A stretch of DNA of 57,817 nt from Candidatus Omnitrophota bacterium (GTDB lineage Bacteria; Omnitrophota; Gorgyraeia; JABMRN01; RBG-13-46-9). Numbering within the stretch: the stretch's first letter is position 1; every line of letters begins with the position of its first letter. The stretch lies in contig JAMXCZ010000003.1 in the NCBI GenBank assembly GCA_024542975.1, forward strand, positions 1 through 57,817, given 5' to 3'. This document shows, piece after piece, positions 3,273-25,889 of the stretch. The notes under the pieces are model-generated. The model saw only the letters and a list, made by a program, of their open reading frames with translations, searched no databases and had not been told where the DNA came from. Both the position numbers and the translations under genes were made by a program.

Positions 3273-4379
3273 ATGGAAAAACACTCGGTTGTTAGTTTAT
3301 TTTCAGGATGTGGTGGGCTTGATTTTGGTTTCTACCAGGCTGGATTTAATCTAGTCTGGGCTAATGAAATTAGCGAAGATGCTGCGCAGTCCTATTCTAG
3401 CCTTTTAGGGCATAATGTTGTTACTGATGATATTTGGAGAGTAATTGAACAGGTGCCGCATAGCGATGTGGTTATTGGCGGTCCCCCTTGTCAGTCTTTT
3501 TCTCTAGTTGGCAAACGCCTAGAAACAGATCCGCGAGGAAAACTTGTTTTTGCTTATGAGCAAGTCATTAAAAACGCTAAACCACTAGCTTTTGTAATGG
3601 AAAATGTGCCTGGCTTGATGTCCTCCCATATTGATGGCACGCGATTGCATCTTTATTTAGCGGATCAATTTATGAAGTTGGGATACAAAGTTTCTATCTT
3701 AAAGTTGATAGCTACTGATTTTTTTGTTCCACAAAAAAGACGGCGAGTATTCATGATTGGTCACCGCATAGATGGAAAATCATTTGATCTTATTGATGCC
3801 GATGCCTTTGCAAAAATTCTTGGAGAACCTAATTTAAAATCCCCAGTTACTGTTTCAGATGCACTTGATGATTTACCGAATCCACTGCGCAAAGGCAACA
3901 AGGCTTCGGTAGCCTATAAATCATCACCACATTCGGCTTATTCTCAATTGATGCGTCAGAATGGCCCACAGGAAATTGAATTACAGACAATGCCAACTAT
4001 GTCAGAACTTGATCGAGAGTTTGTTAAGCATATCCCACCTGGCGGGAACTATAATAATATTCCCGATTCGATATCTACCAAGAGAATATTGTCCTTCAAG
4101 AAATCGGGTGGAAGAACCACAACATATGGTCGTTTACATCAAGACGCACCAGCTTATACGATCAACACATATTTTAATCGACCAAATGTGGGAGCAAACT
4201 ATCATCATGAAGAAGAGAGACTAATTACTGTTCGTGAAGCATTGCGTCTTCAGTCTTTTCCTGATTACTTTACTCCATATTATTCGAACCAAAGAAGTCT
4301 TCATATGCAGATAGGTAATGCTGTTCCGCCTCTCATGGCCAGAGCTGTTGCAGAATCTCTTAAAAGATTGCTCGCATGA
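3273..4379 (+). CDS. DNA (cytosine-5) methyltransferase
   Basis: Motifs FSGCGG (I), GGPPCQSFS (IV), MENVPG (VI), QKRRR (VIII), REALRLQSF (IX) and GNAVPP (X). Confidence 0.95.
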   Translation: MEKHSVVSLFSGCGGLDFGFYQAGFNLVWANEISEDAAQSYSSLLGHNVVTDDIWRVIEQVPHSDVVIGGPPCQSFSLVGKRLETDPRGKLVFAYEQVIKNAKPLAFVMENVPGLMSSHIDGTRLHLYLADQFMKLGYKVSILKLIATDFFVPQKRRRVFMIGHRIDGKSFDLIDADAFAKILGEPNLKSPVTVSDALDDLPNPLRKGNKASVAYKSSPHSAYSQLMRQNGPQEIELQTMPTMSELDREFVKHIPPGGNYNNIPDSISTKRILSFKKSGGRTTTYGRLHQDAPAYTINTYFNRPNVGANYHHEEERLITVREALRLQSFPDYFTPYYSNQRSLHMQIGNAVPPLMARAVAESLKRLLA

Positions 4380-5713
4380 TACAACAAGAAGTTATTAAAA
4401 AAGGTGAATTAGGACAGGTTTGGACTCCTAGCGATGTAGCTTGCGAAATGGCTAAAGAAGTATTAGCTGTAAACCCGCGTGCAAAGCATGTGCTTGATCC
4501 TGCTTGTGGTCCAGCAACTTTTTCAACTGCATTTGATAGCGCCGGAGCTAAAAATATAGATCTTGTTTGCTATGACGTTGATGAAACCATGAAGAAGTTT
4601 ACCGCCAAAACGAATCGGAAACTTGGGTTCAAGAGTAAAACTAGATTAGCTGACTACTTAGCAGATACTAGCTTAGAGGGAACTTTTGACACAATTATAA
4701 TGAATCCTCCGTATATTCGTCAAGAAGACATAGCAAAAGTTAACAAGGATAAATACCATCAGTATTTATCTCAAAATTTTAGAGAAAAAATTGACAAGAG
4801 GACTAACCTGTTTGCTCTGTTTCTGTTAAAAGGAACACTTGACCTAAAGCCTAATGGTGTAATGTGTGCAATTGTCTATGATGCCATTAGTCAAACCGAG
4901 TATGGGAAGAAGACGCTTAAACTTATGGATCGCCATGCTAAAATGTTATCTAGCAAACACGTTAAAATGCCTTTTGATGATGTTTTAGTTGACGCTCAAA
5001 TCCTACTATTTCGTAAAAGACAACATATATTGGAAGCGAGCGAATCCTACAAAGAAAGATGCGACGACAAGCTAACAACTCTTGAAAAGTTGCTTGATAC
5101 CCGTAGAGGAACTTGTTTCCCATTACGAAAGCTATTTATTGCTACCCGAAATGATCCATATTTTAGTTCTACGAGCCCTCTTTTTATTAAACAGCGCAAC
5201 ATTACAGGACTTGTAGTTAAGCCAGATCAGAGGGCGTATCTAGCTAATAAACCTCTTCGCGCTGAGATTTTTAAATGGCTGCATAAACGATCTGACAATC
5301 AGTTTCCATTATCAAAGATGGCCGTGCGCGGCATTAAAGGCCCCATTGTTTTCAATTACTATATGCGTAAAGCACCTCGCCATTTATGGAATCCAAAAAA
5401 CATTGCTGTAACAGACAATTTCTATGTTTCAACCCCAAGAAATGATTTTCCAAGTGAAATAGCTTGGTTTCTTTTGAATAGTGACCTCTATATATCTAAA
5501 CTTCTAAGGGCTGCTCGGAATCAGGGTAATGGGTTGTTAAAGCTGCAATTATTCGAATACAAAAATGTGCGAATGCCTGATTGGAATCGGATTCCAAAAA
5601 GGGAAATAGCAGCTTTGTCAAAAGTCGCGAAAGAGTTGATCAAAGATAATGCTAGTTACGAAACTATCAGGAAAATTGCTGATAAAGCAACAAAGGGGTT
5701 GTTTAATGCCTAG
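4376..5713 (+). CDS. N6-adenine DNA methyltransferase (gamma class, Eco57I-like)
   Basis: GQVWTP, LDPACG and NPPY motifs with a C-terminal TRD-like region. ATGA overlap with the upstream gene. Confidence 0.9.
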   Translation: MIQQEVIKKGELGQVWTPSDVACEMAKEVLAVNPRAKHVLDPACGPATFSTAFDSAGAKNIDLVCYDVDETMKKFTAKTNRKLGFKSKTRLADYLADTSLEGTFDTIIMNPPYIRQEDIAKVNKDKYHQYLSQNFREKIDKRTNLFALFLLKGTLDLKPNGVMCAIVYDAISQTEYGKKTLKLMDRHAKMLSSKHVKMPFDDVLVDAQILLFRKRQHILEASESYKERCDDKLTTLEKLLDTRRGTCFPLRKLFIATRNDPYFSSTSPLFIKQRNITGLVVKPDQRAYLANKPLRAEIFKWLHKRSDNQFPLSKMAVRGIKGPIVFNYYMRKAPRHLWNPKNIAVTDNFYVSTPRNDFPSEIAWFLLNSDLYISKLLRAARNQGNGLLKLQLFEYKNVRMPDWNRIPKREIAALSKVAKELIKDNASYETIRKIADKATKGLFNA

Positions 5714-8306
5714 GCCAATTTTGCCATCATATTCATCACCCGAAAATACAGTGTTTCATCCAGCTTTTAAATATGCTGTTGAAGAAGCAATTGCTCGCAA
5801 AGGGCTTACTGGAACCATTGATATTAAGGGGCAATATCCTACTCCGACTGGACCTGCAGATTTCGCGTTGTTCAACAATTCAACTCAAAGAGTATTAATG
5901 CCGATAGAGATAAAGAGAACTCAAGGAAGTGCCAGAGGACCTGGAAGACGACAAGCTCGTGATTATTGGGTGAATTTAGGGCGCGCAACGCCATTTTATT
6001 GCGTATCGAATTTAGAGTTAACGGAGCTATTCAGAAATGATACTCTTCGTCCAAGGACATCTGCTCAGCTCTTAAAATTATCCAATGCACATGCTGGTCA
6101 ATTAGGTGTTACACAGCCAAACGACCTATATGACAATCTTATTTTATGCATGGAAGAGATACTTGATCTATTGCTTGGCATATCCAGTCCAGTTTACGTA
6201 ACTGGGCTTGTCGAATTTCAGGCGCATATAGAGAATGTAATAGGCAATGCGTCGGCTTGGCACAAAATATTCATACCGGCATGCTATGAATACATTAGAG
6301 GTGCCGCGTCACTAGGCGGCCCACTTTCTACTCTAATTGCGTCTTGGAGAGCAGCAGATTTCTTTAAAAACAATCCCCAGCGGCTTAATCAACTTGGTAG
6401 TGCTGTTGACTTTGAACATATATTCAAAATTCCAGACCCAGATCCCAATGACCCGATTGCTTTTGCTCAAATAGTATTGAAAGAATTGTATGAGAGCGGT
6501 AAGGCGCTTGGCCAGGGAGATGATATAGCAGAGCTTGTTAATGAAGCCTTAGCGCCAGCTGGGTTGGGAATAATCGAAACTGATGTTGAACTGGCTCAAT
6601 TATTATCTGTTGTAGCAAGAGTTGCATTAGGCAGAGACTTGAAACCAAATGAAGAAGTGGTTGATCCTGCGGCTGGAAGCGGTCGTATCTTAACGGCGCT
6701 GTTACTAACCGCATTTCCAGGGCTAACTCCACGCCAAGTTAGAGCCATTGAGAAGGAACAGCTTTTTGCAGAATCTTTAAGTCTTCGCTTGGGTTTGGCA
6801 TTTGCTCCAGTGATCTCTGCAGCTAACTCTCCAACGGTAACTATTTCACCCATTGAGTCAATAAATCCATCCGAATTTGAAAACGTCCGTATTGTTTCCA
6901 TGAATCCTCCTTTTATGTCTGGCGTTCAGGCTGCTAGCTTGAAAGGGTCATTTGTTAGTCGCATTAGAGCCGTTTCTGGCAGACCGTCTGTATTAAGCAG
7001 TGGTCAGATAGCTCTTGAGGCTTTATTTCTTGAGCTTATTTGGCATTTGGTTAAGCCAGAAACAATCATTGCTACAGTTTTTCCTTTCCAACATTTATCG
7101 AGAAGATCGGATGAGGTAGTTGCTTTACGGCGTTTTCTTGCTGAAACTTTTGCTTTAACACATATCGTAGTTTATCCAAGCGCAGGTCTTTTTCAAGAAG
7201 TTATTAAACAGACCGTTTTGCTCGTTGGGAAAAAAGGAGCGACTGAAGAAGATGTAAAGGTTGTCGAAATACAAAAGCGAGTTGCAGATGTTGATTTTTC
7301 TGAAATGCTTAACCAAATGCTCAGTGGTAGTTTAAACCCAACGCATGGTGTTTTAATAAAATCTGTGCCACGATGTGATCTTATGTCTAGTATTTCTGAC
7401 GGCTGGAAGGGAATATTTGGTTCAGGAGCATTGAGCCAAGCATTTCTGCAAAAATATATGAGCAGTTTTTCTTCAATTGAAGACCTTGGATCTGCCAATG
7501 TCACCAGGGGGTCTGTAGGAAATCATGGTAACACAAAATTAACAGTTTTTAATTCACCCAACCCGAGGTATCTTAGCGTTTTCAACTTAATTCCACCTCT
7601 TTGGTTAAAGCCAGTTCTTAACAAAACAGTAAATATGCCTAGAGACCTAACCCCTACTAATGCGCCACAGATGTCATTTGTACCGCCACCTTCTGCTTAC
7701 CAAGCAGGAACAGCAGAAAATCAAACATTGCGGTCAATCGTTCAGAAATATCTGTTGGTATATGTTCCACCGCGAGGAAGTCAAACGCGCAGGGTTAAGA
7801 CAGAGGATGAAATTATAAGTGATCTACAGGCAGACCAGAGAGTTCCTGGCTCCGGGTGGGTGCTAATCCAACGGGCTTCAAGAACACAGGGAGAAATTGG
7901 CTTACTAGAGCATAATGGTATTTTGTTGTCGACAAATGTTCCTATGGTTAAACTTCCTACAGATAGAGAAAGAAAGCTACTGGCCTCCTGGGTTCTTTCG
8001 GTTTTTGGACAGATGCAGCTTAATATTCTTGGAACATCTCAAGAAGGTATGCGTAAGCTAGAGATATCTTCCATTAAAGGGCTATTGTATCCGGATTTTT
8101 CTGTTATTTCTGCAGCTATTGCAGCAACATTGCTTTCAACCCTTATGACTGAACCGGCTTTGTCCTTTAACCAAATTCAGCAACGGTCGTCGGACCAACT
8201 TTGGGCAGAAGTGGTTGATCCTGCTGATTCTACCACGTGTCTAGTTCAAGCATTTGAAATCTTTCAACAGCAAGTTGAAGAGCTGCAAAATTTTGGGAAT
8301 ACATAA
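5706..8306 (+). CDS. Type IIG/IIC-like restriction endonuclease-methyltransferase fusion
   Basis: N-terminal PD-(D/E)xK-like PADFALF...IEIK, central DPAAGSG and NPPF, C-terminal specificity-like region. Start placed at ATG 5706. Confidence 0.75.
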   Translation: MPRPILPSYSSPENTVFHPAFKYAVEEAIARKGLTGTIDIKGQYPTPTGPADFALFNNSTQRVLMPIEIKRTQGSARGPGRRQARDYWVNLGRATPFYCVSNLELTELFRNDTLRPRTSAQLLKLSNAHAGQLGVTQPNDLYDNLILCMEEILDLLLGISSPVYVTGLVEFQAHIENVIGNASAWHKIFIPACYEYIRGAASLGGPLSTLIASWRAADFFKNNPQRLNQLGSAVDFEHIFKIPDPDPNDPIAFAQIVLKELYESGKALGQGDDIAELVNEALAPAGLGIIETDVELAQLLSVVARVALGRDLKPNEEVVDPAAGSGRILTALLLTAFPGLTPRQVRAIEKEQLFAESLSLRLGLAFAPVISAANSPTVTISPIESINPSEFENVRIVSMNPPFMSGVQAASLKGSFVSRIRAVSGRPSVLSSGQIALEALFLELIWHLVKPETIIATVFPFQHLSRRSDEVVALRRFLAETFALTHIVVYPSAGLFQEVIKQTVLLVGKKGATEEDVKVVEIQKRVADVDFSEMLNQMLSGSLNPTHGVLIKSVPRCDLMSSISDGWKGIFGSGALSQAFLQKYMSSFSSIEDLGSANVTRGSVGNHGNTKLTVFNSPNPRYLSVFNLIPPLWLKPVLNKTVNMPRDLTPTNAPQMSFVPPPSAYQAGTAENQTLRSIVQKYLLVYVPPRGSQTRRVKTEDEIISDLQADQRVPGSGWVLIQRASRTQGEIGLLEHNGILLSTNVPMVKLPTDRERKLLASWVLSVFGQMQLNILGTSQEGMRKLEISSIKGLLYPDFSVISAAIAATLLSTLMTEPALSFNQIQQRSSDQLWAEVVDPADSTTCLVQAFEIFQQQVEELQNFGNT

Positions 8307-13956: not shown

Positions 13957-14160
13957 ATGAGTCCTACAGATAAAATCCTATTTTTTTTAATTGTAACTAT
14001 CGAGAAAAGCCGGAGAAGGCTACTCGTTTGGCTAAAGCAAAAGCCATTTCTCTGTGGGGCTGTTGTAGTTTTTATCTCAAGTTTCATAATACCCCGCTAT
14101 TTCATACAAGCTCTTGTTTTGGCTATGGCTTTGTTTGTGATGCAGTTAAAGACAAGGTGA
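13957..14160 (+). CDS. Small membrane hypothetical protein
   Basis: 67 aa with a hydrophobic C-terminal half, first ORF after the promoter. Confidence 0.45.
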   Translation: MSPTDKILFFLIVTIEKSRRRLLVWLKQKPFLCGAVVVFISSFIIPRYFIQALVLAMALFVMQLKTR

Positions 14161-14165
14161 AGAAT

Positions 14166-14384
14166 ATGGACAAGCCGATATTGCTAGACCGGGGAGAGGC
14201 AGAGAGGATCGCTGGTGAAATACTAGACAAGCTCGAGCCAGAGAATTACCCGAAGATACTGGCCCTAACAAGGGAATCAGCAATCAGGGGGATCGTGGAT
14301 GGCGCGGCCGTGGGGAACGACCAGTACCGGGAAGGGTTCCTGACGAACACGGTGTTAGTGATGGAAGCCGACTTGTCGTATTAG
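14166..14384 (+). CDS. 72-aa hypothetical protein, paralog 1
   Basis: 54/72 aa identical to 15076-15294 (hand count), with an AAGGTG SD. Confidence 0.8.
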   Translation: MDKPILLDRGEAERIAGEILDKLEPENYPKILALTRESAIRGIVDGAAVGNDQYREGFLTNTVLVMEADLSY

Positions 14385-15058: not shown

Positions 15059-15075
15059 AAAAGAAGGTGAATAAT

Positions 15076-15294
15076 ATGGACAAGCCGATACTACTAAACC
15101 GAGAGCAGGCCGAGAAGATCGCAAGCGAGATATTGAACGAGCTCGAGCCGGAGAACTACCCGAAGCTCCTGGCGTTAAACCGGGAATCAGCGATAAGGCG
15201 GATCGTAGACGGCGCGGCGGTGAGCAAAGACCAATACGAGGAAGGCTTCCTGACGAACGCCGTGTTGACGAACGAGAGCGACCTGTCCCGTTAG
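15076..15294 (+). CDS. 72-aa hypothetical protein, paralog 2
   Basis: Paralog of 14166-14384 with the same upstream AAGGTGA..AAT ATG context. Confidence 0.8.
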   Translation: MDKPILLNREQAEKIASEILNELEPENYPKLLALNRESAIRRIVDGAAVSKDQYEEGFLTNAVLTNESDLSR

Positions 15295-16275: not shown

Positions 16276-17592
16276 GTGAAAGGACTGAAAAAAATGAGAC
16301 AAGCAAAAGAAGAAAATCTACCTACAATACCGCATAACGAAGAAGCCGAACGCGCTTGTTTGGCCTCACTCATACTAGACAAAAACCTCATAAACGAAGC
16401 TATCGAGACTATTGCTCCCGAGCATTTCTACGGCGCTCGAAATAGGACCGTGTATAAAGCCATACTTACCCTTGCAAAAGAAGGAAAGCCGGCAGACCTT
16501 GTAGTCTTAAACGACGTTTTAAAGAATAAGGACGTTCCCGCGTCCTTTTTGGTCGAACTTACTGCCTCAATTCCTACATCCGCAAACTTTCGCCATTACG
16601 CAGAAATACTTAAAGGCCACTATGTCCGGCGCCTGACAATAGAGAAATCATACCGCCATATCGAGGAGGCTCAAACTACCGATGATTATTCCGGACTTCT
16701 CGCTTTAGTAACGCAAGAATTTTCTAAGCTTGCCCAGGAGCAGATTAAAAGCGATATCCTGTCACCAAAGGAGTTGGCTAAGATAGGATTGAAGGATTTC
16801 ACCGATAGGCTTGATAATAAAATTGATTTTACAGGCTTTTCCAGTGGCTATTATCAGCTTGATAGGCTATGCGGAGGCTTTGGTCGAGGCGATCTGGTTA
16901 TCGTGGCTGGCCAGACAAGCATCGGCAAGAGCGCGTTCCTTTTAGATATTGCTTATCGGCAATCGATCCGAGGAGGCCTTAAATGCGCTTATTTTAGCCT
17001 GGAGATGGGTGTTTTTGAGATAGTCTATCGCCTTCTAAGTAAGATGACTTTTTTGGAATCCACCGCTATAAAAGCGCCTAAGCTTTTAAAAGAAGAACAA
17101 ATAAAAAAAGTCATACAGGCTGCAAATGCTCTGCACGATTCCAATTTTTTCCTCGATATCATGCCTATCATCAATCTTGAAAAGCTCTTGGCTAAAGCGC
17201 GAAAGATAAATGCAAAGGAGAATATCGACTTAATTTTTATAGACTACATACAGCTCATATCAACCAGGGTTAAAAATCAGGCAAGACACGAGGTTCTTTC
17301 GGATATAACTAAGGACCTAAAGCAGCTTGCCCGGGAGCTTGAAGTACCGGTAATCGCCGGCGCGCAACTTAACAGATCCACGCTCGAGAAAGCAGAGCCC
17401 AAGTTAAGCCATATCGGGGAAAGCTTTGCGATCGTGCAACATGCCGATTCCGTGATTTTAATTTCAAGAAACGACGCAAATGCAACCCTCAATATAGCCA
17501 AAGCCCGGCAAGCCAAAGGCGGAAAATTCGACTTAAGATTCGATTTTAAAACAGTCTCCTTTGTGGAGCGGGAGGTAGCTAATGATTTATGA
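16276..17592 (+). CDS. Element-encoded DnaB-like replicative helicase
   Basis: PHNEEAERACL N-terminal domain, Walker A AGQTSIGKS, FSLEM, IFIDYIQL, AQLNR and AKARQ. The start may be 16294. Confidence 0.92.
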   Translation: MKGLKKMRQAKEENLPTIPHNEEAERACLASLILDKNLINEAIETIAPEHFYGARNRTVYKAILTLAKEGKPADLVVLNDVLKNKDVPASFLVELTASIPTSANFRHYAEILKGHYVRRLTIEKSYRHIEEAQTTDDYSGLLALVTQEFSKLAQEQIKSDILSPKELAKIGLKDFTDRLDNKIDFTGFSSGYYQLDRLCGGFGRGDLVIVAGQTSIGKSAFLLDIAYRQSIRGGLKCAYFSLEMGVFEIVYRLLSKMTFLESTAIKAPKLLKEEQIKKVIQAANALHDSNFFLDIMPIINLEKLLAKARKINAKENIDLIFIDYIQLISTRVKNQARHEVLSDITKDLKQLARELEVPVIAGAQLNRSTLEKAEPKLSHIGESFAIVQHADSVILISRNDANATLNIAKARQAKGGKFDLRFDFKTVSFVEREVANDL

Positions 17593-17890
17593 GACTACTG
17601 ATATAAAACTTGGAGCTGCAATCCTCGCTGAAATCCTTGAGACCTTCTTCGTGGGTATTAGCAAAGAGAACTGTGTCGGCACAAAGAGACCTATCAAAAT
17701 AACCTATTCTGAGGAATACGCGGAGACGTTGAAAAAACTAATAGGAGACTACGAGAGAAAAGTTTTAATGGTAAATTTATACGAGTTTAATCGCGCGTTA
17801 TTTCTGATACGCAATGCGCTATTCGGAAGAAGTGGACATAATGGAAACGGATTGAGAGAAAGGAAGGCCGGAGGTGCAACTAGACGATAG
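17582..17890 (+). CDS. DUF5659-like phage/ICE protein
   Basis: YETTDIKLGAAIL...LYEFNRALFLIRNALF pattern, in a replication-module context. Confidence 0.55.
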   Translation: MIYETTDIKLGAAILAEILETFFVGISKENCVGTKRPIKITYSEEYAETLKKLIGDYERKVLMVNLYEFNRALFLIRNALFGRSGHNGNGLRERKAGGATRR

Positions 17891-18362
17891 AAAGAAGCGA
17901 ACCGTTCGAATCCCTACCGAAATATGGGAAGCCTTAACAAAGGTTAGAATTAGTGGTGAAGAATGGCAATGTTTATGTTTGATTTTAAGAAAAACTTACG
18001 GCTGGCATAAGAGCAAGGATTGGATATCCAATTCACAGTTTGTTAATGCTACCGGGATTAAGAAGCAGAGTGTAAATAGGGCGTTAAAAAAATTGATAGC
18101 GAAAAATATAGTAAGCAAAAAAGCTTACGAAAGTAGGCAGTTTTACGGATTAAACGAAGATCTTCGGAGATGGAAACCGTCAGCAAAAAAGCTTACTAAA
18201 AATGTAAGCAATAAAGCTTCTGGTAGTAAGCCAAAAAGCTTCTCAGATGTAAGCAATAATGCTGCCCACAAAAGCATTATTACAAAAGCATCTATTACAA
18301 AAGAGAAAGAGTTTGAAAAAACATTTGGTAAGAATCCAGAAGAATTTATAAGAAGAGTGTAG
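17874..18362 (+). CDS. Phage replication initiator, lambda O N-terminal type
   Basis: EAL...ILRKTYGWHKSKDWISNSQF...TG...RALKKL, with internal iterons. Confidence 0.85.
   Translation: MQLDDRKKRTVRIPTEIWEALTKVRISGEEWQCLCLILRKTYGWHKSKDWISNSQFVNATGIKKQSVNRALKKLIAKNIVSKKAYESRQFYGLNEDLRRWKPSAKKLTKNVSNKASGSKPKSFSDVSNNAAHKSIITKASITKEKEFEKTFGKNPEEFIRRV
18111..18304. repeat. Iteron array / replication origin inside the initiator gene
   Basis: Five 18-bp quasi-palindromes GTAAGC-N6-GCTTAC at 18111, 18179, 18204, 18226 and 18249, followed by AT-rich CAAAAGCA..TATTA repeats. Confidence 0.8.
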
Positions 18363-18696: not shown

Positions 18697-19137
18697 ATGA
18701 GAGGAAGAAAATTACAGATACCCGGCCAATGGAGCGTTAAGCAGCTAAGATTGCAGCAGATGCTAGCCGATCCGTTTGATAAGCGCGTTTTAGCTGAAAA
18801 AGCCAAAGAGGTAGGTATTAGCGAGCGCGTCCTTTACAAATGGAAAAATATGCCTGGCTGGCAAGATACTGTTTTTGAAATAGCGAAGAAATGGATAGGC
18901 GATGGCGCGCCAAAGGTATTAAGGGCCCTATATCATAAAGCAAAGGATACGGGGGATCCGGTATGTGTAAAGCTGTATTTGGAGATTATCGGTAAATATA
19001 CGCAGAAAACCGAGATGGACATTAGGGCAGGGAGGTTAGAGGAATTGAGCGATGAAGAGCTTAGAGACATTATCGCGAAAGGAGCTGCTTTTCAAAGCGG
19101 AGGCAGCGGGGGAGCTCCAAAGACGCTACCGGGATAA
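18697..19137 (+). CDS. Putative terminase small subunit (phBC6A51-like HTH)
   Basis: HTH AEKAKEVGISERVLYKW, then ALYHKA..GD...KLYLE and LSDEEL. It overlaps terL. Confidence 0.75.
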   Translation: MRGRKLQIPGQWSVKQLRLQQMLADPFDKRVLAEKAKEVGISERVLYKWKNMPGWQDTVFEIAKKWIGDGAPKVLRALYHKAKDTGDPVCVKLYLEIIGKYTQKTEMDIRAGRLEELSDEELRDIIAKGAAFQSGGSGGAPKTLPG

Positions 19138-20488
19138 CAGGATAGCGTATTATAATCCCCATAGGCTGCAGGAAAAGTTCCACAAGAGTCAGGCAATTAT
19201 TCGCCTGTTTCTCGGAGGAAATGGTGCCGGTAAAAGTATTGCTGGCGCTACTGAGACGACTTGGGCCTCCATAGGAAAACACCCTTATTGGAAATATCCC
19301 GTTCCATCAAGGGGTCGAATCGCGACTACATCATTTGATAAAATCGAACAAGTGATAATCCCTCAATTAGAGGCTTGGATTCCCAAAAGACAGGTCAGAG
19401 ACCGGAAGAAGAACAATCTTGGCATATATGCAAAATGGTGGCTTAAAAATGGCACTTTTTTCGATATTCTATCATATCAGCAGGATGTTGAGGAGTATGA
19501 GGGCGTTGATCTTGACTGGTTTTGGAGTGACGAGCCTATGCCTAAAGATAGATACCAAGCGACATTAGCGCGGTTTAGAAGAGTAGGCCGTATATGGATG
19601 ACACTAACGCCTTTAACTGAGCCCTGGATACTTGATGAGCTTGTTAATAACGCTGATGGAGAGTATATAGACGTGATAACAGCAGATATCATGGATAACT
19701 GTGTCGAAAAAGGCGGATACCTAAGCCGGGAAGCTATCGACTTAATGCTCAAGGGCTATGATGATGATGAGAAAGAAGCCCGGGCACATGGCCGTTTTAT
19801 CTTCCTGCAGGGCCTAATATATAAGTCTTTCGATAGAGATGTTCATGTTGTCGAGCCTTTTGATATTCCTAAAGACTGGACAAGGAAATGCATTGTAGAC
19901 CCACATGATCGGAAACCTTTTGCTATTGGGTGGCAAGCAACAAGTCCTACAGGCGACATATATGTGTATGATGAATGGCCGGAGTATGAGTTCCACAAGA
20001 AGAAGAGTTGCGATTTGACAATCGAGGATTATGCTAATGTTATCAAGATAAAAGAAGAAAAGCAGTTTATTGCAAGACGTCTTATCGATCCAAACTTCGG
20101 CAATGCCATAAACGTCCATACTAAGACTACGATAAAGCAAGATCTCGAGAATTACGGACTTGATTTCGAGGACGCTATTAATGATATACAATCTGGCCAT
20201 TTGAAGGTGAAGGAATATCTTAAATACGATAAATTAAAACCTCTGAGTAATACCAATAAGCCGAAGATCTATTTCTTTAAGACATGTCGAAATCATATCC
20301 ATGGAATGAGCCATTATTTATGGGATGAGTTCGCGGATAAGTCACGTTCGCCCAAACAGAAACCAAAAGATGCAAATAAAGACTTTCCCGATGTCGTCAG
20401 GTACGGGCTCATGGACGATTCGGGTTATCAGATTTTTAATGACGATATGTTAGCGTATCTGAAACATTACAAAGGCATGTCGACATGA
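19052..20488 (+). CDS. Terminase large subunit
   Basis: Q motif LQEKFH, Walker A GGNGAGKS, Walker B WFWSDE, motif III TLTP, nuclease IVDPH...LIDP...KDFPDVVRY. Confidence 0.92.
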   Translation: MKSLETLSRKELLFKAEAAGELQRRYRDNRIAYYNPHRLQEKFHKSQAIIRLFLGGNGAGKSIAGATETTWASIGKHPYWKYPVPSRGRIATTSFDKIEQVIIPQLEAWIPKRQVRDRKKNNLGIYAKWWLKNGTFFDILSYQQDVEEYEGVDLDWFWSDEPMPKDRYQATLARFRRVGRIWMTLTPLTEPWILDELVNNADGEYIDVITADIMDNCVEKGGYLSREAIDLMLKGYDDDEKEARAHGRFIFLQGLIYKSFDRDVHVVEPFDIPKDWTRKCIVDPHDRKPFAIGWQATSPTGDIYVYDEWPEYEFHKKKSCDLTIEDYANVIKIKEEKQFIARRLIDPNFGNAINVHTKTTIKQDLENYGLDFEDAINDIQSGHLKVKEYLKYDKLKPLSNTNKPKIYFFKTCRNHIHGMSHYLWDEFADKSRSPKQKPKDANKDFPDVVRYGLMDDSGYQIFNDDMLAYLKHYKGMST

Positions 20489-21213
20489 CAGAGCTACTCA
20501 GAGGAAATATTAAAGACGGTCTCGGCGGCAAGGAATTTTACGAGGTGGAAAAAGGGGAGTATACGATTTTAGAAAAGCCGAAACATTCTACTCAATACTT
20601 ATGTTCTGTGTGGCTTTCGCCCGGTATCTATAAGTTTAAAAGCTACATTATGGTTTTTGAGAAGACGCCCGGGGTAATCCGGCAGATTGCGGAATGGGCT
20701 GATATAACTTCACCTTCTCAGATAGAATCCGTGTTTGATAAGCTTGTAAGCTATTACTCTTACGAGACTATGCAAAGAATAATGGTCGGCGTAGGAAGGA
20801 ATACCCGGGGGGGGAATTTGATAAATGCCTTAGCAGGTAACCCAAGAAAACAGTATGACTTGTATAGAGAAAAAACAAGAGATGCTTCGACAGGTGTTAT
20901 GGAGCCGAAGGCGGGCATAATTGATGATGATAAAAACAGAATCGCTTTAATAGACGATTTACAAGAAGCCTTTTCCAATAACAGAATATACCCCTTACCG
21001 GATAGTAATGTAGATGTTCTAAAAAACATCATAGTTGATAAGGAGAAATATACAATCCCCGAGAAATATGAAGCTTATATTTTGTCCTTAGCTGGAGCTT
21101 ATAGGGTGTTTAAAGAGCATCCGCACAGAAAGCCGGTAGATCGCACGAGGATTAAAGCATTAATACAGGAACGGAGACAGAGATTAAACAATCCGTTTAG
21201 GAGATCTACATAG
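20485..21213 (+). CDS. Stand-alone TerL C-terminal nuclease-like domain, catalytic acids apparently lost
   Basis: Pattern ILEKP...YLCSVWLSPG...RQIAEW...VGVGRNTRGG...LIDDLQEA...YEAYILSLAGAY tracks the TerL RNase-H domain. Confidence 0.55.
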   Translation: MTELLRGNIKDGLGGKEFYEVEKGEYTILEKPKHSTQYLCSVWLSPGIYKFKSYIMVFEKTPGVIRQIAEWADITSPSQIESVFDKLVSYYSYETMQRIMVGVGRNTRGGNLINALAGNPRKQYDLYREKTRDASTGVMEPKAGIIDDDKNRIALIDDLQEAFSNNRIYPLPDSNVDVLKNIIVDKEKYTIPEKYEAYILSLAGAYRVFKEHPHRKPVDRTRIKALIQERRQRLNNPFRRST

Positions 21214-21265: not shown

Positions 21266-21457
21266 ATGGAGAAGGTAGAGCAGAGGTATCTAAACGTAAA
21301 GGGCGTGGCAGCGTATTTAGGAACTACGCCGCTTACGATATATGATTGGGTGCGGAAGAGGAAGGTACCGGTTCATAAGCTTAATGGGAGCTTGAAGTTT
21401 GATAAGCTGGAAATAGATAGAATGATGGAAGAAAATCGAGTTAAAGAAATGGATTGA
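21266..21457 (+). CDS. xis: Excisionase / HTH_17 DNA-binding protein
   Basis: YLNVKGVAAYLG...TIYDWV...VPVHKLNGSLKFDKLEIDR. Confidence 0.85.
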   Translation: MEKVEQRYLNVKGVAAYLGTTPLTIYDWVRKRKVPVHKLNGSLKFDKLEIDRMMEENRVKEMD

Positions 21458-21482
21458 AATAGAAAGTATATGTGGCTATAAT
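21454..21482 (+). promoter_or_regulatory. sigma70 promoter for RT (and possibly int and the tRNAs)
   Basis: TTGAAA (overlapping the xis stop), 17 nt spacer, TATAAT. Confidence 0.7.
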
Positions 21483-23099: not shown

Positions 23100-24179
23100 A
23101 TGAGCTTATACAAAAGAGAAAAAAACTGGTATATAGATTATCACGCTTATGGAAAGCGCATTAGGGAAGTCATAGGGGCCGACAGAAAGCTTGCTGAAAC
23201 CGTTCTTGCCAAACGAAAGCTTGCCATAACAGAAAACCGTTTTCTTGATATAAAAAAGAAAAGCAGAACAACCTTCAATGAACTGTGCGATCTTTACATA
23301 GAACTTCACGCAAAACCCAATAAGAGGCATTGGCAAAGGTCAGATGCGCTTCACCAGAGGCGCTTAAAAGAGTTTTTTGGCAATCCAAGAATAGCGGCGA
23401 TAGCTCAGGAGCAAGTAGAGCTATATAAGGCAAAGAGGCTTGAAGAAGTGTCGCCTGCAACCGTTAATCGAGAATTAACTTGCCTTAAGCACATGTTTAA
23501 TAAGGCAATCGAGTGGAAGAAGATCGAATATAATCCTGCAGCGAGGGTTAAGAAGCTCAGGGAGAACAATGCCAGAATGCGTTACTTAGAAAAAGAAGAA
23601 ATTAGAACGCTGATAGATAACTGTAATGATACCGTTAGGCCGGTTGTAATTCTTGGACTATATACAGGTATGCGGCAAGGGGAGATGCTTAACCTTAAAT
23701 GGCGAGACATAGATATAGGTAAGGGCATACTGTACATATTAAGGACAAAGAATGACGAACCGAGAGAAATCCCAATGTGTGATATTGTAAAGAGGACTCT
23801 CATAGCAATTCCAAAACACAAAGATAGTCCTTATGTGTTTTGCAAAAAGAATGGTAAGCCTTATGGGAAGCTTAGGAAAAGCTTCTTGCAAGCATTGGAT
23901 AAATCTGGTATACTACATTTTCGTTTTCACGATCTTAGACATACTTTCGCGTCGCAATTTATGATGGCAGGCGGCGAGCTTAATACTTTGAGAGAGCTTT
24001 TGGGCCATAAGGATATTAAGATGACATTAAGGTATTCTCACTTGTCAAGAGACCATAAACGCAGGGCAATGGAGAATTTTGACCGGCAGATGGTCACAAA
24101 TCGGTCACAAGCGCCGGAAACAAACTTTTTAGATAGTTTACGCGATTCTCATAACATCTTTGAAAATAAAGAGTTATAG
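23100..24179 (+). CDS. int: Tyrosine integrase
   Basis: TGMRQGE (R), TKN (K), HDLRH, LLGH and RYSH catalytic residues, with an N-terminal arm-binding region. Confidence 0.96.
   Translation: MSLYKREKNWYIDYHAYGKRIREVIGADRKLAETVLAKRKLAITENRFLDIKKKSRTTFNELCDLYIELHAKPNKRHWQRSDALHQRRLKEFFGNPRIAAIAQEQVELYKAKRLEEVSPATVNRELTCLKHMFNKAIEWKKIEYNPAARVKKLRENNARMRYLEKEEIRTLIDNCNDTVRPVVILGLYTGMRQGEMLNLKWRDIDIGKGILYILRTKNDEPREIPMCDIVKRTLIAIPKHKDSPYVFCKKNGKPYGKLRKSFLQALDKSGILHFRFHDLRHTFASQFMMAGGELNTLRELLGHKDIKMTLRYSHLSRDHKRRAMENFDRQMVTNRSQAPETNFLDSLRDSHNIFENKEL
24093..24111 (+). repeat. Integrase arm-type site inside the 3' end of int
   Basis: GTCACAAATCGGTCACAAG matches 797-815. Confidence 0.7.
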
Positions 24180-24183
24180 CACT

Positions 24184-24261
24184 GGGGCCATAGCTCAATT
24201 TGGTTAGAGCATCTGACTCATAATCAGGTGGTTCCTGGTTCAAGTCCAGGTGGCCCCACCA
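24184..24261 (+). tRNA. tRNA(CAT), probably tRNA-Ile2; contains attR
   Basis: Cloverleaf with GGGGCCA/TGGCCCC acceptor stem, CT-CAT-AA loop, GTTCAAG T-loop and encoded CCA. It resembles Ile2 and lacks initiator features. Confidence 0.92.
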
Positions 24262-24312: not shown

Positions 24313-24389
24313 GGGCACATGGCTTAGCTGGTTAAAGCGCTGCGTTCACATCGCAGAGATCAAAGGTTCGAATCCTTTTGTGCCCACCA
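24313..24389 (+). tRNA. tRNA-Val(CAC)
   Basis: GGGCACA/TGTGCCC acceptor stem, CTGCG-TT-CAC-AT-CGCAG anticodon arm, GTTCGAA and CCA. Confidence 0.93.
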
Positions 24390-24396
24390 CTTAATT

Positions 24397-25113
24397 ATGA
24401 AAGAGATAAACATGAAAGAGCAGATGAAAATGTTGGTTGAGCTGCAGAAGCTTGATGCGGAGATCTTTGACAGAAAGAAGATATTGGAGGAAGTGCCGGT
24501 CAGGATAAAAGAGCTGGAGAATGGGTTGGAGGCAAAATCAACGCACCTGAAGAGCCTGGAAGAGGACCTGAAGAAGCTCAAGGTCAGCCAGAAACAAAGG
24601 GAAATGGACCTGGAAACAAAGGAGCAGGGGATAAAAAAACATCAGGGGCAGCTTCATCAGATCAAGACAAACAAGGAGTATGCGGCTTTGGAAAAGGAGA
24701 TCGCGAGCCTTAAGGCCGATAATTCCCTGCTGGAGGAAGAAATCATCAATTTGCTTGACCAAAGCGACGAGATGCAGAAGGCCGTGTCCGGCGAGAAGAA
24801 AGTCCTGGAAGACGAAAATAAAAAGTCAGTGGAAGAAAAGAAAAAGATCGAGGCTGAAAAGAATAAAAGCGAAGCGGAATTGAACAATTTAAACGCCAAG
24901 CGCCTGGAATTCGCAAAAAATATAGATCAGGGTATTTTGCCAAAGTATGAAAGAATTTTGCACAACAAAGCGGGGCATGCCGTAGTTTCCATAGCGGGAA
25001 ACGCCTGCGGCGGCTGCAATATGAGTTTACCGCCCCAGGTGATAAATGAGGTTAAGCTTCGGGCTTCACTTATTTTCTGTGAGAACTGCGCAAGAATACT
25101 CCACGCGGAATAA
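24397..25113 (+). CDS. C4-type zinc-ribbon coiled-coil protein (DUF164 type)
   Basis: LQKLD coiled coil, then CGGC...CENCARIL. Confidence 0.9.
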   Translation: MKEINMKEQMKMLVELQKLDAEIFDRKKILEEVPVRIKELENGLEAKSTHLKSLEEDLKKLKVSQKQREMDLETKEQGIKKHQGQLHQIKTNKEYAALEKEIASLKADNSLLEEEIINLLDQSDEMQKAVSGEKKVLEDENKKSVEEKKKIEAEKNKSEAELNNLNAKRLEFAKNIDQGILPKYERILHNKAGHAVVSIAGNACGGCNMSLPPQVINEVKLRASLIFCENCARILHAE

Positions 25114-25523
25114 TGAAAAAACTATCTGTTTATGTGGATGGCGGATCGCGGGGAAACCCCGGTCCGGCAGGCATAGGGGCCGTGATATTGAACGAAAAGG
25201 GAACGGTGATCCGGGAGTACAACAAGTATATAGGTATTACGACAAACAATGTCGCAGAATATAATGCGGTTATCTATGGCCTGCAGGAGGCCCTGATAGA
25301 GAAGGCGGATGCGATTGAACTTCATCTGGACAGCGAATTGGTCGCTCAGCAGTTAAAAGGGGAATATAAAGTAAAAAATGCGAATATACGCCCATTATTT
25401 GAACAGGCATTGCATCTCATATCCGGATTCAAAAAATGCACTATAACCCGTATTGGCAGAGAAAAAAATAAATTAGCAGATAAACTTGTTAATAAAGCAA
25501 TAAATTTAGGCGGTCTTTTATAA
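25113..25523 (+). CDS. rnhA: Ribonuclease HI
   Basis: YVDGGSRGNPG, TNNVAEY, LDSELV and NKLAD motifs. Confidence 0.92.
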   Translation: MKKLSVYVDGGSRGNPGPAGIGAVILNEKGTVIREYNKYIGITTNNVAEYNAVIYGLQEALIEKADAIELHLDSELVAQQLKGEYKVKNANIRPLFEQALHLISGFKKCTITRIGREKNKLADKLVNKAINLGGLL

Positions 25524-25882
25524 AGCGGAATAGATCGGATGGCCGCCTTGCCCGAAAGGGCGGGGAGGAAAGTCCGAGCTCCGGAGAGCAGCGTAGCGGC
25601 TAACGGCCGCCTTCGGCGCTAAGCTTATGAAGTTAGTGTCGGAAGGATTAGAGCCACAGAGACGAGTAAGTACACTACTGGTGTATGGAAGTGAAACGCG
25701 GCAATCTCTACGTGGAGCAAGGTCAAATAGTTCCCGATCAAGGAACTGCTCGTTTCTACCGTGACTTATCGGTATCGGGAAGGGTAGGCTGCACGAGGTT
25801 GTCAGTAATGGCAGCCCAAGATAGATGGTCATCGGCGCGCGCAAGCGCGCTTACAGAACTCGGCTTACAGGTCTATTCCGCT
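25524..25882 (+). ncRNA. rnpB: RNase P RNA (type A)
   Basis: GAGGAAAGTCCGAGCTC and ACAGAACTCGGCTTA conserved regions. The P1 ends pair (GCGGAATAGA/TCTATTCCGC). Confidence 0.95.
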
Positions 25883-25889
25883 ATTTAGA

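Follow-up and report, generated by a model that had tools for sequence, protein, structure and literature searches.

A stand-alone protein with a predicted terminase nuclease fold, lacking canonical catalytic acids, is encoded directly behind terL in a satellite-like element of a Candidatus Omnitrophota bacterium

To our knowledge, large terminases (TerL) are treated as self-contained two-domain motors, with the small terminase TerS as their only dedicated partner. The nuclease domains of TerLs such as T4 and RB49 gp17, G20c and P74-26 (Terminase_6C type) have an RNase H-like fold and are linked to an ATPase domain, and free open reading frames (ORFs) of about 250 amino acids with this fold are found in phages with a split terL. 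Lambda gpFI is a small, non-catalytic accessory factor which promotes the docking of terminase to the prohead. In D6E TerL, a short segment past the last nuclease helix, the C-terminal arm, acts in cis to restrain the ATPase and was proposed to engage the portal (PMC5727402). Among satellites, the PICI-like element (PLE) of Vibrio cholerae is described to produce Gpi, a small protein which binds and inhibits the TerL of the helper, ICP1, and thereby blocks its packaging (PMC11417361), and the capsid-forming phage-inducible chromosomal islands (cf-PICIs) are described as integrative satellites with their own terS and terL which also encode capsid, portal and head-completion proteins (10.1101/2022.09.08.507074). 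Here, we describe a gene, ORF242, in a stretch of 57,817 nucleotides (nt) of a Candidatus Omnitrophota bacterium (contig JAMXCZ010000003.1, assembly GCA_024542975.1; the whole stretch is called the window below). ORF242 follows a complete terS-terL pair in an integrative element, and its product is predicted to be a terminase nuclease domain without ATPase and, very probably, without the canonical two-metal site.

The terminase genes and ORF242 are located as follows:

18697 to 19137, + strand: terS-like small terminase with a helix-turn-helix (HTH) domain; PF13022 with an E-value (E) of 2.2e-11, phrog_24579 'terminase small subunit' with E 1e-9
19052 to 20488, + strand: terL, complete two-domain large terminase of 478 amino acids
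20485 to 21213, + strand: ORF242, 242 amino acids, predicted stand-alone TerL-nuclease (RNase H-like) fold without canonical metal-binding acids

The ATG of ORF242 (20485-20487) overlaps the TGA stop codon of terL (20486-20488) as ATGA at 20485-20488, and a purine-rich AAAGG lies 9 nt upstream of the start. The initial annotation, made by eye from the sequence, had noticed this ORF and its overlap with the terL stop and had proposed that the two genes are coupled; the coordinates, the length and the ATGA were confirmed, and the coupling is further supported by an identical gene order in two other loci, L002 and L003 (see below). The product of ORF242 has its own start and no N-terminal ASCE packaging ATPase.

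TerL itself was found to be complete. It matched Terminase_6N of Pfam (E 2e-5), and phrog_2 'terminase large subunit' spans residues 34-457. In an alignment of 41 sequences K61 and E161 are invariant in the ATPase half, as are D283, D346 and D447 in the nuclease half. The AlphaFold model, with a predicted local distance difference test (pLDDT) of 88.0, matched the full-length terminases of D6E, Sf6, T4 and HK97 over approximately 440-500 columns; the closest solved structure is that of D6E (E 1.2e-21). Taken from their first start codons, terS and terL overlap by 86 nt in different frames, and the related TerL P0009, also of 478 amino acids, is covered to 99% by terL called in this way. No other TerL was found in the 92%-complete genome. 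Since the upstream TerL is complete, ORF242 is not the missing half of a split terL and, therefore, is an extra nuclease-like protein. This sets it apart from the nuclease halves of split-terL phages and, likewise, from TerL nuclease domains in general: ORF242 accompanies a TerL which has a nuclease domain of its own. In Salmonella phage 38 (L089, 16-819), a separate coding sequence (CDS) of 267 amino acids is annotated as large terminase and comprises the nuclease domain only, but in the alignment its three motifs still read D, E and HDD, with acids which ORF242 does not have. Three internal in-frame products of gene 17 are annotated in the T4 record (L080, 4673-6505). The phage 38 CDS and the T4 products are precedents for C-terminal TerL pieces that occur free; they are parts or isoforms of the enzyme with the motifs kept, not an inactivated extra copy.

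The AlphaFold2 model of ORF242, built from a seven-row family alignment, had a mean pLDDT of 84.2 and a predicted template modelling score (pTM) of 0.81. The fold proper comprises approximately residues 37-211; it is preceded by an N-terminal beta extension (5-28), and a basic C-terminal helix (220-235) ends the protein. Foldseek against the PDB gave 24 matches with E <= 0.001, and, among the matches listed, all rows down to E 5.6e-4 are nuclease domains of phage or herpesvirus terminases. They included T4 gp17 (3cpe, E 1.2e-8), the nuclease of RB49 gp17 (3c6h, template modelling (TM) score by target 0.70-0.72), G20c (5m1f), P74-26 nucleases, a T7 model and the nucleases of herpesvirus pUL15/UL89. 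Against BFVD, 153 matches with E <= 0.001 were obtained, with proteins named terminase on top. The ESM Atlas holds its own, independent model of ORF242 (pTM 0.79), whose structural neighbours are Terminase_6C/6N clusters with TM-scores of 0.70-0.78; its look-alikes by features are viral clusters of 231-266 amino acids. The RNase H outline of a terminase, which the initial annotation had drawn by eye, thus came first in all of these structure comparisons, and the models suggest that ORF242 descends from the nuclease domain of a large terminase. A RuvC-type Holliday-junction resolvase was also considered and rejected: the nearest folds are terminases, no RuvC was found among the matches listed, and the acids are missing.

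Sequence comparisons did not recognize this relationship. ORF242 matched no family in Pfam, PHROGs, PADLOC or NCBIfam, and none of the seven family members matched a Pfam family even at E <= 10. Searched with the family profile, PDB sequences gave only chance-level matches, of which a zinc lipoprotein was the best at E 0.043. A BLASTP comparison of ORF242 with the neighbouring TerL did not go below E 3.1, and the hhalign probability of the family profile amounted to 0.15% against the TerL family of 41 sequences and to 0.25% against T4 gp17 alone. Because the comparisons with TerL failed, there is no support for a recent origin of ORF242 by duplication of the nuclease domain of the adjacent terL; in addition, the best structural neighbours differ (T4/RB49 for ORF242, D6E/Sf6 for TerL). 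ORF242 therefore shares with the Terminase_6C-type nuclease domain one of its four defining features, the fold, and does not have the other three, i.e. the acids, the fusion to an ATPase and the profile match.

An exhaustive, length-unrestricted HMMER search of 1.84 billion representative proteins retrieved six relatives of ORF242, four of them below E 1e-30; all have 172-239 amino acids, and none of the six is fused to an ATPase. Word-indexed searches added one further relative. The reading frame is intact in all seven members of the family, which are 27-66% identical. Within the phylum, 2 of 401 genomes match ORF242, the genome of the window included, and one of the 401 has a TerL of this clade; the latter was not found in the genome G235, whose contig ends inside the ORF242 homologue. 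One locus with an ORF242 relative (L001) was found on genome contigs, three on metagenome contigs, one of which is the contig of L001, and none in the viral contig collection. L001 and its copies break off inside the ORF242 homologue, and the upstream DNA is seen for L002 and L003 (the latter being the same element as L001, L004 and L007). In both, the ORF242 relative lies directly 3' of a terL which shares 80.5-81.6% identity with that of the window in its C-terminal half. The relatives themselves differ much more from ORF242, the divergence at the amino acid level far exceeding that of the adjacent terL (37-38% vs. 81-82% identity; dN 0.68 vs. 0.12). The genes 3' of the relative differ as well: a Drt4/Drt6-like reverse transcriptase in the window, a gene with a SocA/Panacea domain in L003, and, in L002, other genes, among them a large methylase-like ORF.

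The relatives of L002 and L003, the one usable pair, are distinguished by 16 synonymous and 6 non-synonymous differences. The resulting dN/dS of 0.09 shows no neutral decay and indicates that the family is under purifying selection. The six HMMER relatives, the confident fold and this ratio identify ORF242 as a genuine gene and not a chance ORF. Between L002 (3-1345) and L003 (3-1389), dS amounted to 0.78 in the C-terminal half of terL and to 0.14 in the ORF242 homologue; this discordance places a recent recombination breakpoint at the terL/ORF242 junction, as judged from the substitution rates.

Outside this clade, the position behind terL is occupied differently. In 72 viral loci with TerLs of 29-40% identity, none of the ORFs of at least 50 amino acids was related to ORF242 (best E 0.56). 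There, terL is followed by an ORF of 600-770 amino acids, which is an SU10-type portal in L008, or first by an ORF of 160-236 amino acids which is mostly helical and unrelated to ORF242. The small ORF was seen in L011 (1728-2222), L014 (6425-6946), L016 (6413-6943) and about 15 further loci, often with a stop/start overlap with terL and with the SU10-type portal gene 3' of it. It has the conserved patterns 'PIA..K.RLER' and 'QFNQ...L.DEEL' and a weak DUF2280 match (E 1.6e-4, below the cut-off), and it possibly encodes a small terminase positioned behind terL.

The catalytic positions of ORF242 were mapped indirectly, by profile alignment to 11 T4-like nuclease domains from public phage records and by the order of secondary structures, without superposition of coordinates. 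Global and local hhalign gave the same co-linear register for the first two motifs (W43 = T4 D401, G104 = E458, N106 = N460, G109 = G463), and the third motif was aligned in the global mode only (E196 = D541, A197 = D542):

Motif 1 (global and local): ORF242 Y38 L C S V W43 L S P G47; T4 gp17 Y I A T L D401 C S E G
Motif 2 (global and local): ORF242 V G104 R N106 T R G109; T4 gp17 I E458 L N460 S T G463
Motif 3 (global only): ORF242 Y195 E196 A197 Y I L S L; T4 gp17 H540 D541 D542 L V M S L

In this register, non-catalytic motif residues are shared with the TerL nucleases (Y38, S45 and G47; N106 and G109; S201-L202), but the metal ligands are replaced by W43, G104 and A197. The order of secondary structures in the models of ORF242 and TerL is consistent with it: the end of strand beta-1 holds W43 in ORF242 and D283 in TerL, the end of beta-4 holds R105 followed by N106 in ORF242 and I345 followed by D346 in TerL, and the fourth residue of the long C-terminal helix is E196 in ORF242 and D447 in TerL. 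The initial annotation had based its claim of a catalytically dead domain on SVWLSPG, VGVGRN and YEAY, which were located at residues 41-47, 101-106 and 195-198. For the first two this was upheld: none of the seven members has a conserved acid at positions 41-47 and 102-109, and the carboxylate of beta-1 is replaced by W or A and that of beta-4 by G, I or A throughout the family. In G20c, the mutants D294N, D347N and D429N were reported to lose nuclease activity (PMC5389553). Because of both observations, the canonical two-metal site of ORF242 is very probably gone, as far as sequence alignment can tell. Two of the three acids are certainly lost, whereas loss of the third holds for the best register alone, since motif 3 is ambiguous by one residue.

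TerL and ORF242 were co-folded with ESMFold2, each with its own alignment, in three runs and with three controls. The interface score ipSAE was 0.68 (0.64, 0.68 and 0.68 in the single runs), and the best of the three controls reached 0.00. The mark applied is reached by 58 of 80 solved complexes and by 2 of 110 mismatched pairs, a calibration which is only rough here because custom alignments were used. The runs share at least 72% of the contacts, and the pLDDT of the partner was at least 82. Confident contacts connect TerL 455-474 with ORF242 156-194. On the side of TerL, these are a loop and a helix which come behind the last nuclease helix and have low confidence in the monomer model, together with a few residues at the edge of the nuclease sheet; on the side of ORF242, they are the end of helix 149-164, helix 176-181 and a small hairpin (183-190) before the helix of E196. 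The TerL segment carries a hydrophobic motif (I/L-F-N/S ... L ... L/V-K) which is present in the close clade (window, L002, L003, P0009 and P0010) and was not seen in five more distant TerLs. Like the arm of D6E, it is a short segment past the last nuclease helix; however, the D6E arm is reported to pack in cis on its own ATPase domain (PMC5727402), whereas the arm of the element's TerL is predicted to pack in trans on ORF242.

From these data we propose, at about an even chance of being correct, that ORF242 is a functional, non-catalytic pseudo-nuclease which serves as accessory subunit of the element's own terminase and holds the TerL arm. ORF242 would be translated together with the intact terL, and its surface (helix 149-164, helix 176-181 and hairpin 183-190) would bind the clade-specific arm 455-474, a segment to which portal docking and restraint of the ATPase are ascribed in other phages. 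Once the arm is held, mounting of the TerL motor on a procapsid, which the element does not encode itself, would be gated or redirected. The binding to TerL is a prediction of the models, and we infer the effect on portal docking from it. In function, ORF242 may resemble lambda gpFI, a likeness by description between proteins with no known fold relationship. If the proposal is true, a dead, stand-alone nuclease copy wired to terL and holding its docking arm would be a new kind of terminase subunit and would clearly exemplify the recruitment of a viral pseudo-enzyme as regulator, and it would give a handle on the question of how satellites fit the motor of one element to the capsid of another. 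In a bolder form, which we consider rather improbable, the terminase is made of three parts, and a fast-swapping dead nuclease copy captures the docking arm of a highly conserved TerL and so chooses on which helper procapsid the motor is mounted, and when; such an exchangeable docking adaptor would let an element without capsid carry a private packaging motor. No such protein was found described in the literature covered, which leaves out subscription journals and supplements. ORF242 is real and rare, and mechanistically suggestive with a function predicted from models.

Several observations weigh against the proposal. The family is known from three independent genomic contexts only, the window, L002 and L003. 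Conservation is no higher among the 22 residues of the predicted interface than among the remaining 153 of the fold (mean BLOSUM 1.03 vs. 1.28; one-sided Mann-Whitney p 0.71), and a pass in the co-fold can also stem from terminase packing which the model has learnt. The register on T4 is a best estimate and not significant by itself: when columns were shuffled, 4 of 100 shuffles attained the global hhalign score (8.2) and 8 of 100 the local one (19.0), and the margin over this background is small. Since E196 and D447 hold equivalent positions in their helices, E196 could equal the metal ligand D447 of the neighbouring TerL and not the residue next to it. Finally, Phage_portal, Phage_capsid and the portal of L008 were unmatched in the 92%-complete genome, SU10_portal was unmatched in a search without positive control, and no helper phage was found.

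The foremost alternative is that ORF242 is a decoy which mimics the nuclease or docking domain of a helper TerL and occupies the helper's portal or poisons its TerL rings, which would keep helper DNA from being packaged while the own terminase is spared. The precedent is Gpi, a small satellite-encoded protein which acts on a TerL, as ORF242 may do; the likeness is one by description (PMC11417361). ORF242 keeps the fold of TerL, including a C-terminal helix (220-235) where TerLs carry the arm, and diverges far more than terL, as expected of an arms-race or specificity module. Gpi, however, is described to act on the TerL of the helper, and PLE is described to have no TerL of its own (TerL being 'a component PLE also requires', PMC11417361); the ORF242 element has a terL, and its product is the sole partner which was tried and the one which is predicted to bind. 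Moreover, neither a helper nor a portal was identified in the genome, and the relative is conserved under apparent purifying selection within the L002/L003 pair. The initial annotation had offered a decoy of helper packaging or an adaptor between TerL and a foreign portal; the co-folding with TerL, as a prediction, fits better with an adaptor or accessory role, and we regard a pure decoy as unlikely.

ORF242 could also be an active nuclease which cuts via a non-canonical site, as a second endonuclease for processing of pac or cos or with an anti-phage effect. The initial annotation had listed YEAY in place of HDD among the motifs without the usual acids, which needs a qualification: YEAY contains E196, which is invariant in the family (7/7) and sits at or beside the third catalytic position. 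Position 148 is acidic in all seven members, and E193 is present in six of seven. Together with the nuclease fold and the uncertainty of one residue in motif 3, these acids (e.g. E196 with D148 and E193) might build such a site. On the other hand, the carboxylates of beta-1 and beta-4, reported as indispensable in G20c (PMC5389553), are replaced in all members, and a complete nuclease domain is already available in the adjacent TerL; an active nuclease appears very unlikely to us.

We give equally little credence to ORF242 being defence or other cargo which is unconnected with packaging and merely lies beside terL, at the border of the variable region. All genes 3' of it are cargo (the Drt4/Drt6-like reverse transcriptase in the window, the SocA/Panacea-type gene in L003, the methylase-like gene in L002), and the discordance in dS between L002 and L003 marks a recombination boundary near the junction, but ORF242 is the one constant gene 3' of terL while the cargo changes, has no match in PADLOC, is translationally coupled to terL and is a predicted TerL binder. 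That ORF242 is the decaying remnant of a second terL, as its TerL-derived fold without ATPase domain and catalytic acids might suggest, is contradicted by the intact frame in seven members, the confident fold and the dN/dS of 0.09, and is hardly credible.

The genes described above are part of an integrative element. An exact repeat of 40 nt, the 5' part of tRNA-Met, was found at 634-673 and 24184-24223; with these att repeats as borders, the element spans approximately 23.55 kb. Further features of the element are:

634 to 673, + strand: left att repeat, exact 40-nt copy of the 5' part of tRNA-Met
3273 to 8306, + strand: restriction-modification cargo of three genes
16276 to 18362, + strand: replication module with a DnaB-type helicase (16276-17592), an ORF of 102 amino acids and a homologue of phage replication protein O (17874-18362)
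21266 to 21457, + strand: HTH_17 excisionase-like DNA-binding protein of 63 amino acids
21513 to 23099, + strand: Drt4/Drt6-like reverse transcriptase of defence type, carried as cargo between ORF242 and the integrase
23100 to 24179, + strand: tyrosine integrase (PF00589, E 1.4e-29)
24184 to 24261, + strand: tRNA-Met(CAT), with the right att repeat as its first 40 nt (24184-24223)

The G+C content of the island is below that of the flanking mraZ-rsmH region. No capsid, portal, protease or tail family was detected among the 31 ORFs scanned with Pfam and/or PHROGs, a scan which divergent structural genes could escape; the largest ORF without a family has 223 amino acids, and the element also holds many small ORFs without a known family. 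Features of phage satellites are thus present, an integrase with att repeats and the element's own DnaB, RepO, terS and terL without a detected virion module, and the element looks like a satellite with a complete terminase and no detectable shell genes, which presumably depends on a helper phage. It shares with the cf-PICIs the integrative lifestyle and an own terS and terL, but the capsid, portal and head-completion proteins which are described for those satellites (10.1101/2022.09.08.507074) were not detected in it. The carrier is unusual in itself, a complete 23.5-kb integrative element from a little-studied phylum with a full terS-terL pair, no detectable capsid genes and a slot for defence cargo.

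The element has integrated into the 5' half of tRNA-Met, as far as the anticodon loop, and the functional copy of this half is contributed by the element itself; 4 nt separate the end of the integrase gene from the tRNA. Integration into tRNA genes usually occurs at the 3' end, so the arrangement in this element is the reverse. The small HTH genes homologous to the HTH_17 gene come after the cargo slot in L001 and L003. The reverse transcriptase matched Drt4 (E 1.3e-185) and Drt6 (E 1.8e-181) of PADLOC nearly equally well and scored 268 bits against the Drt4 equivalog of NCBIfam (cut-off 450); from its sequence, its DRT type may be intermediate or unclassified. Just 5' of the gene, at 21454-21482, lies a promoter-like site (score 11 of 12). 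The restriction-modification cargo comprises a C5 cytosine methylase, an Eco57I/N6-type methylase and a BpuSI-like fused endonuclease-methylase of 885 amino acids, which carries the BpuSI N-terminal and specificity domains. Four iteron-like direct repeats of 22 nt (18111-18247) lie inside the gene of replication protein O and are probably the replication origin of the element. A segment of 236 nt is duplicated with 76% identity (14149-14384 and 15059-15294) and gives rise to paralogous ORFs of 118 and 75 amino acids without a known family, which flank an ORF of 193 amino acids with a zinc-ribbon-like N-terminus. Beyond the element, a tRNA (Val) was found at 24313-24389, and the region 25113-25883 contains an RNase HI-like gene (136 amino acids, recognized by eye), followed 4 nt later by a bacterial class A RNase P RNA (25527-25883, 196.7 bits).

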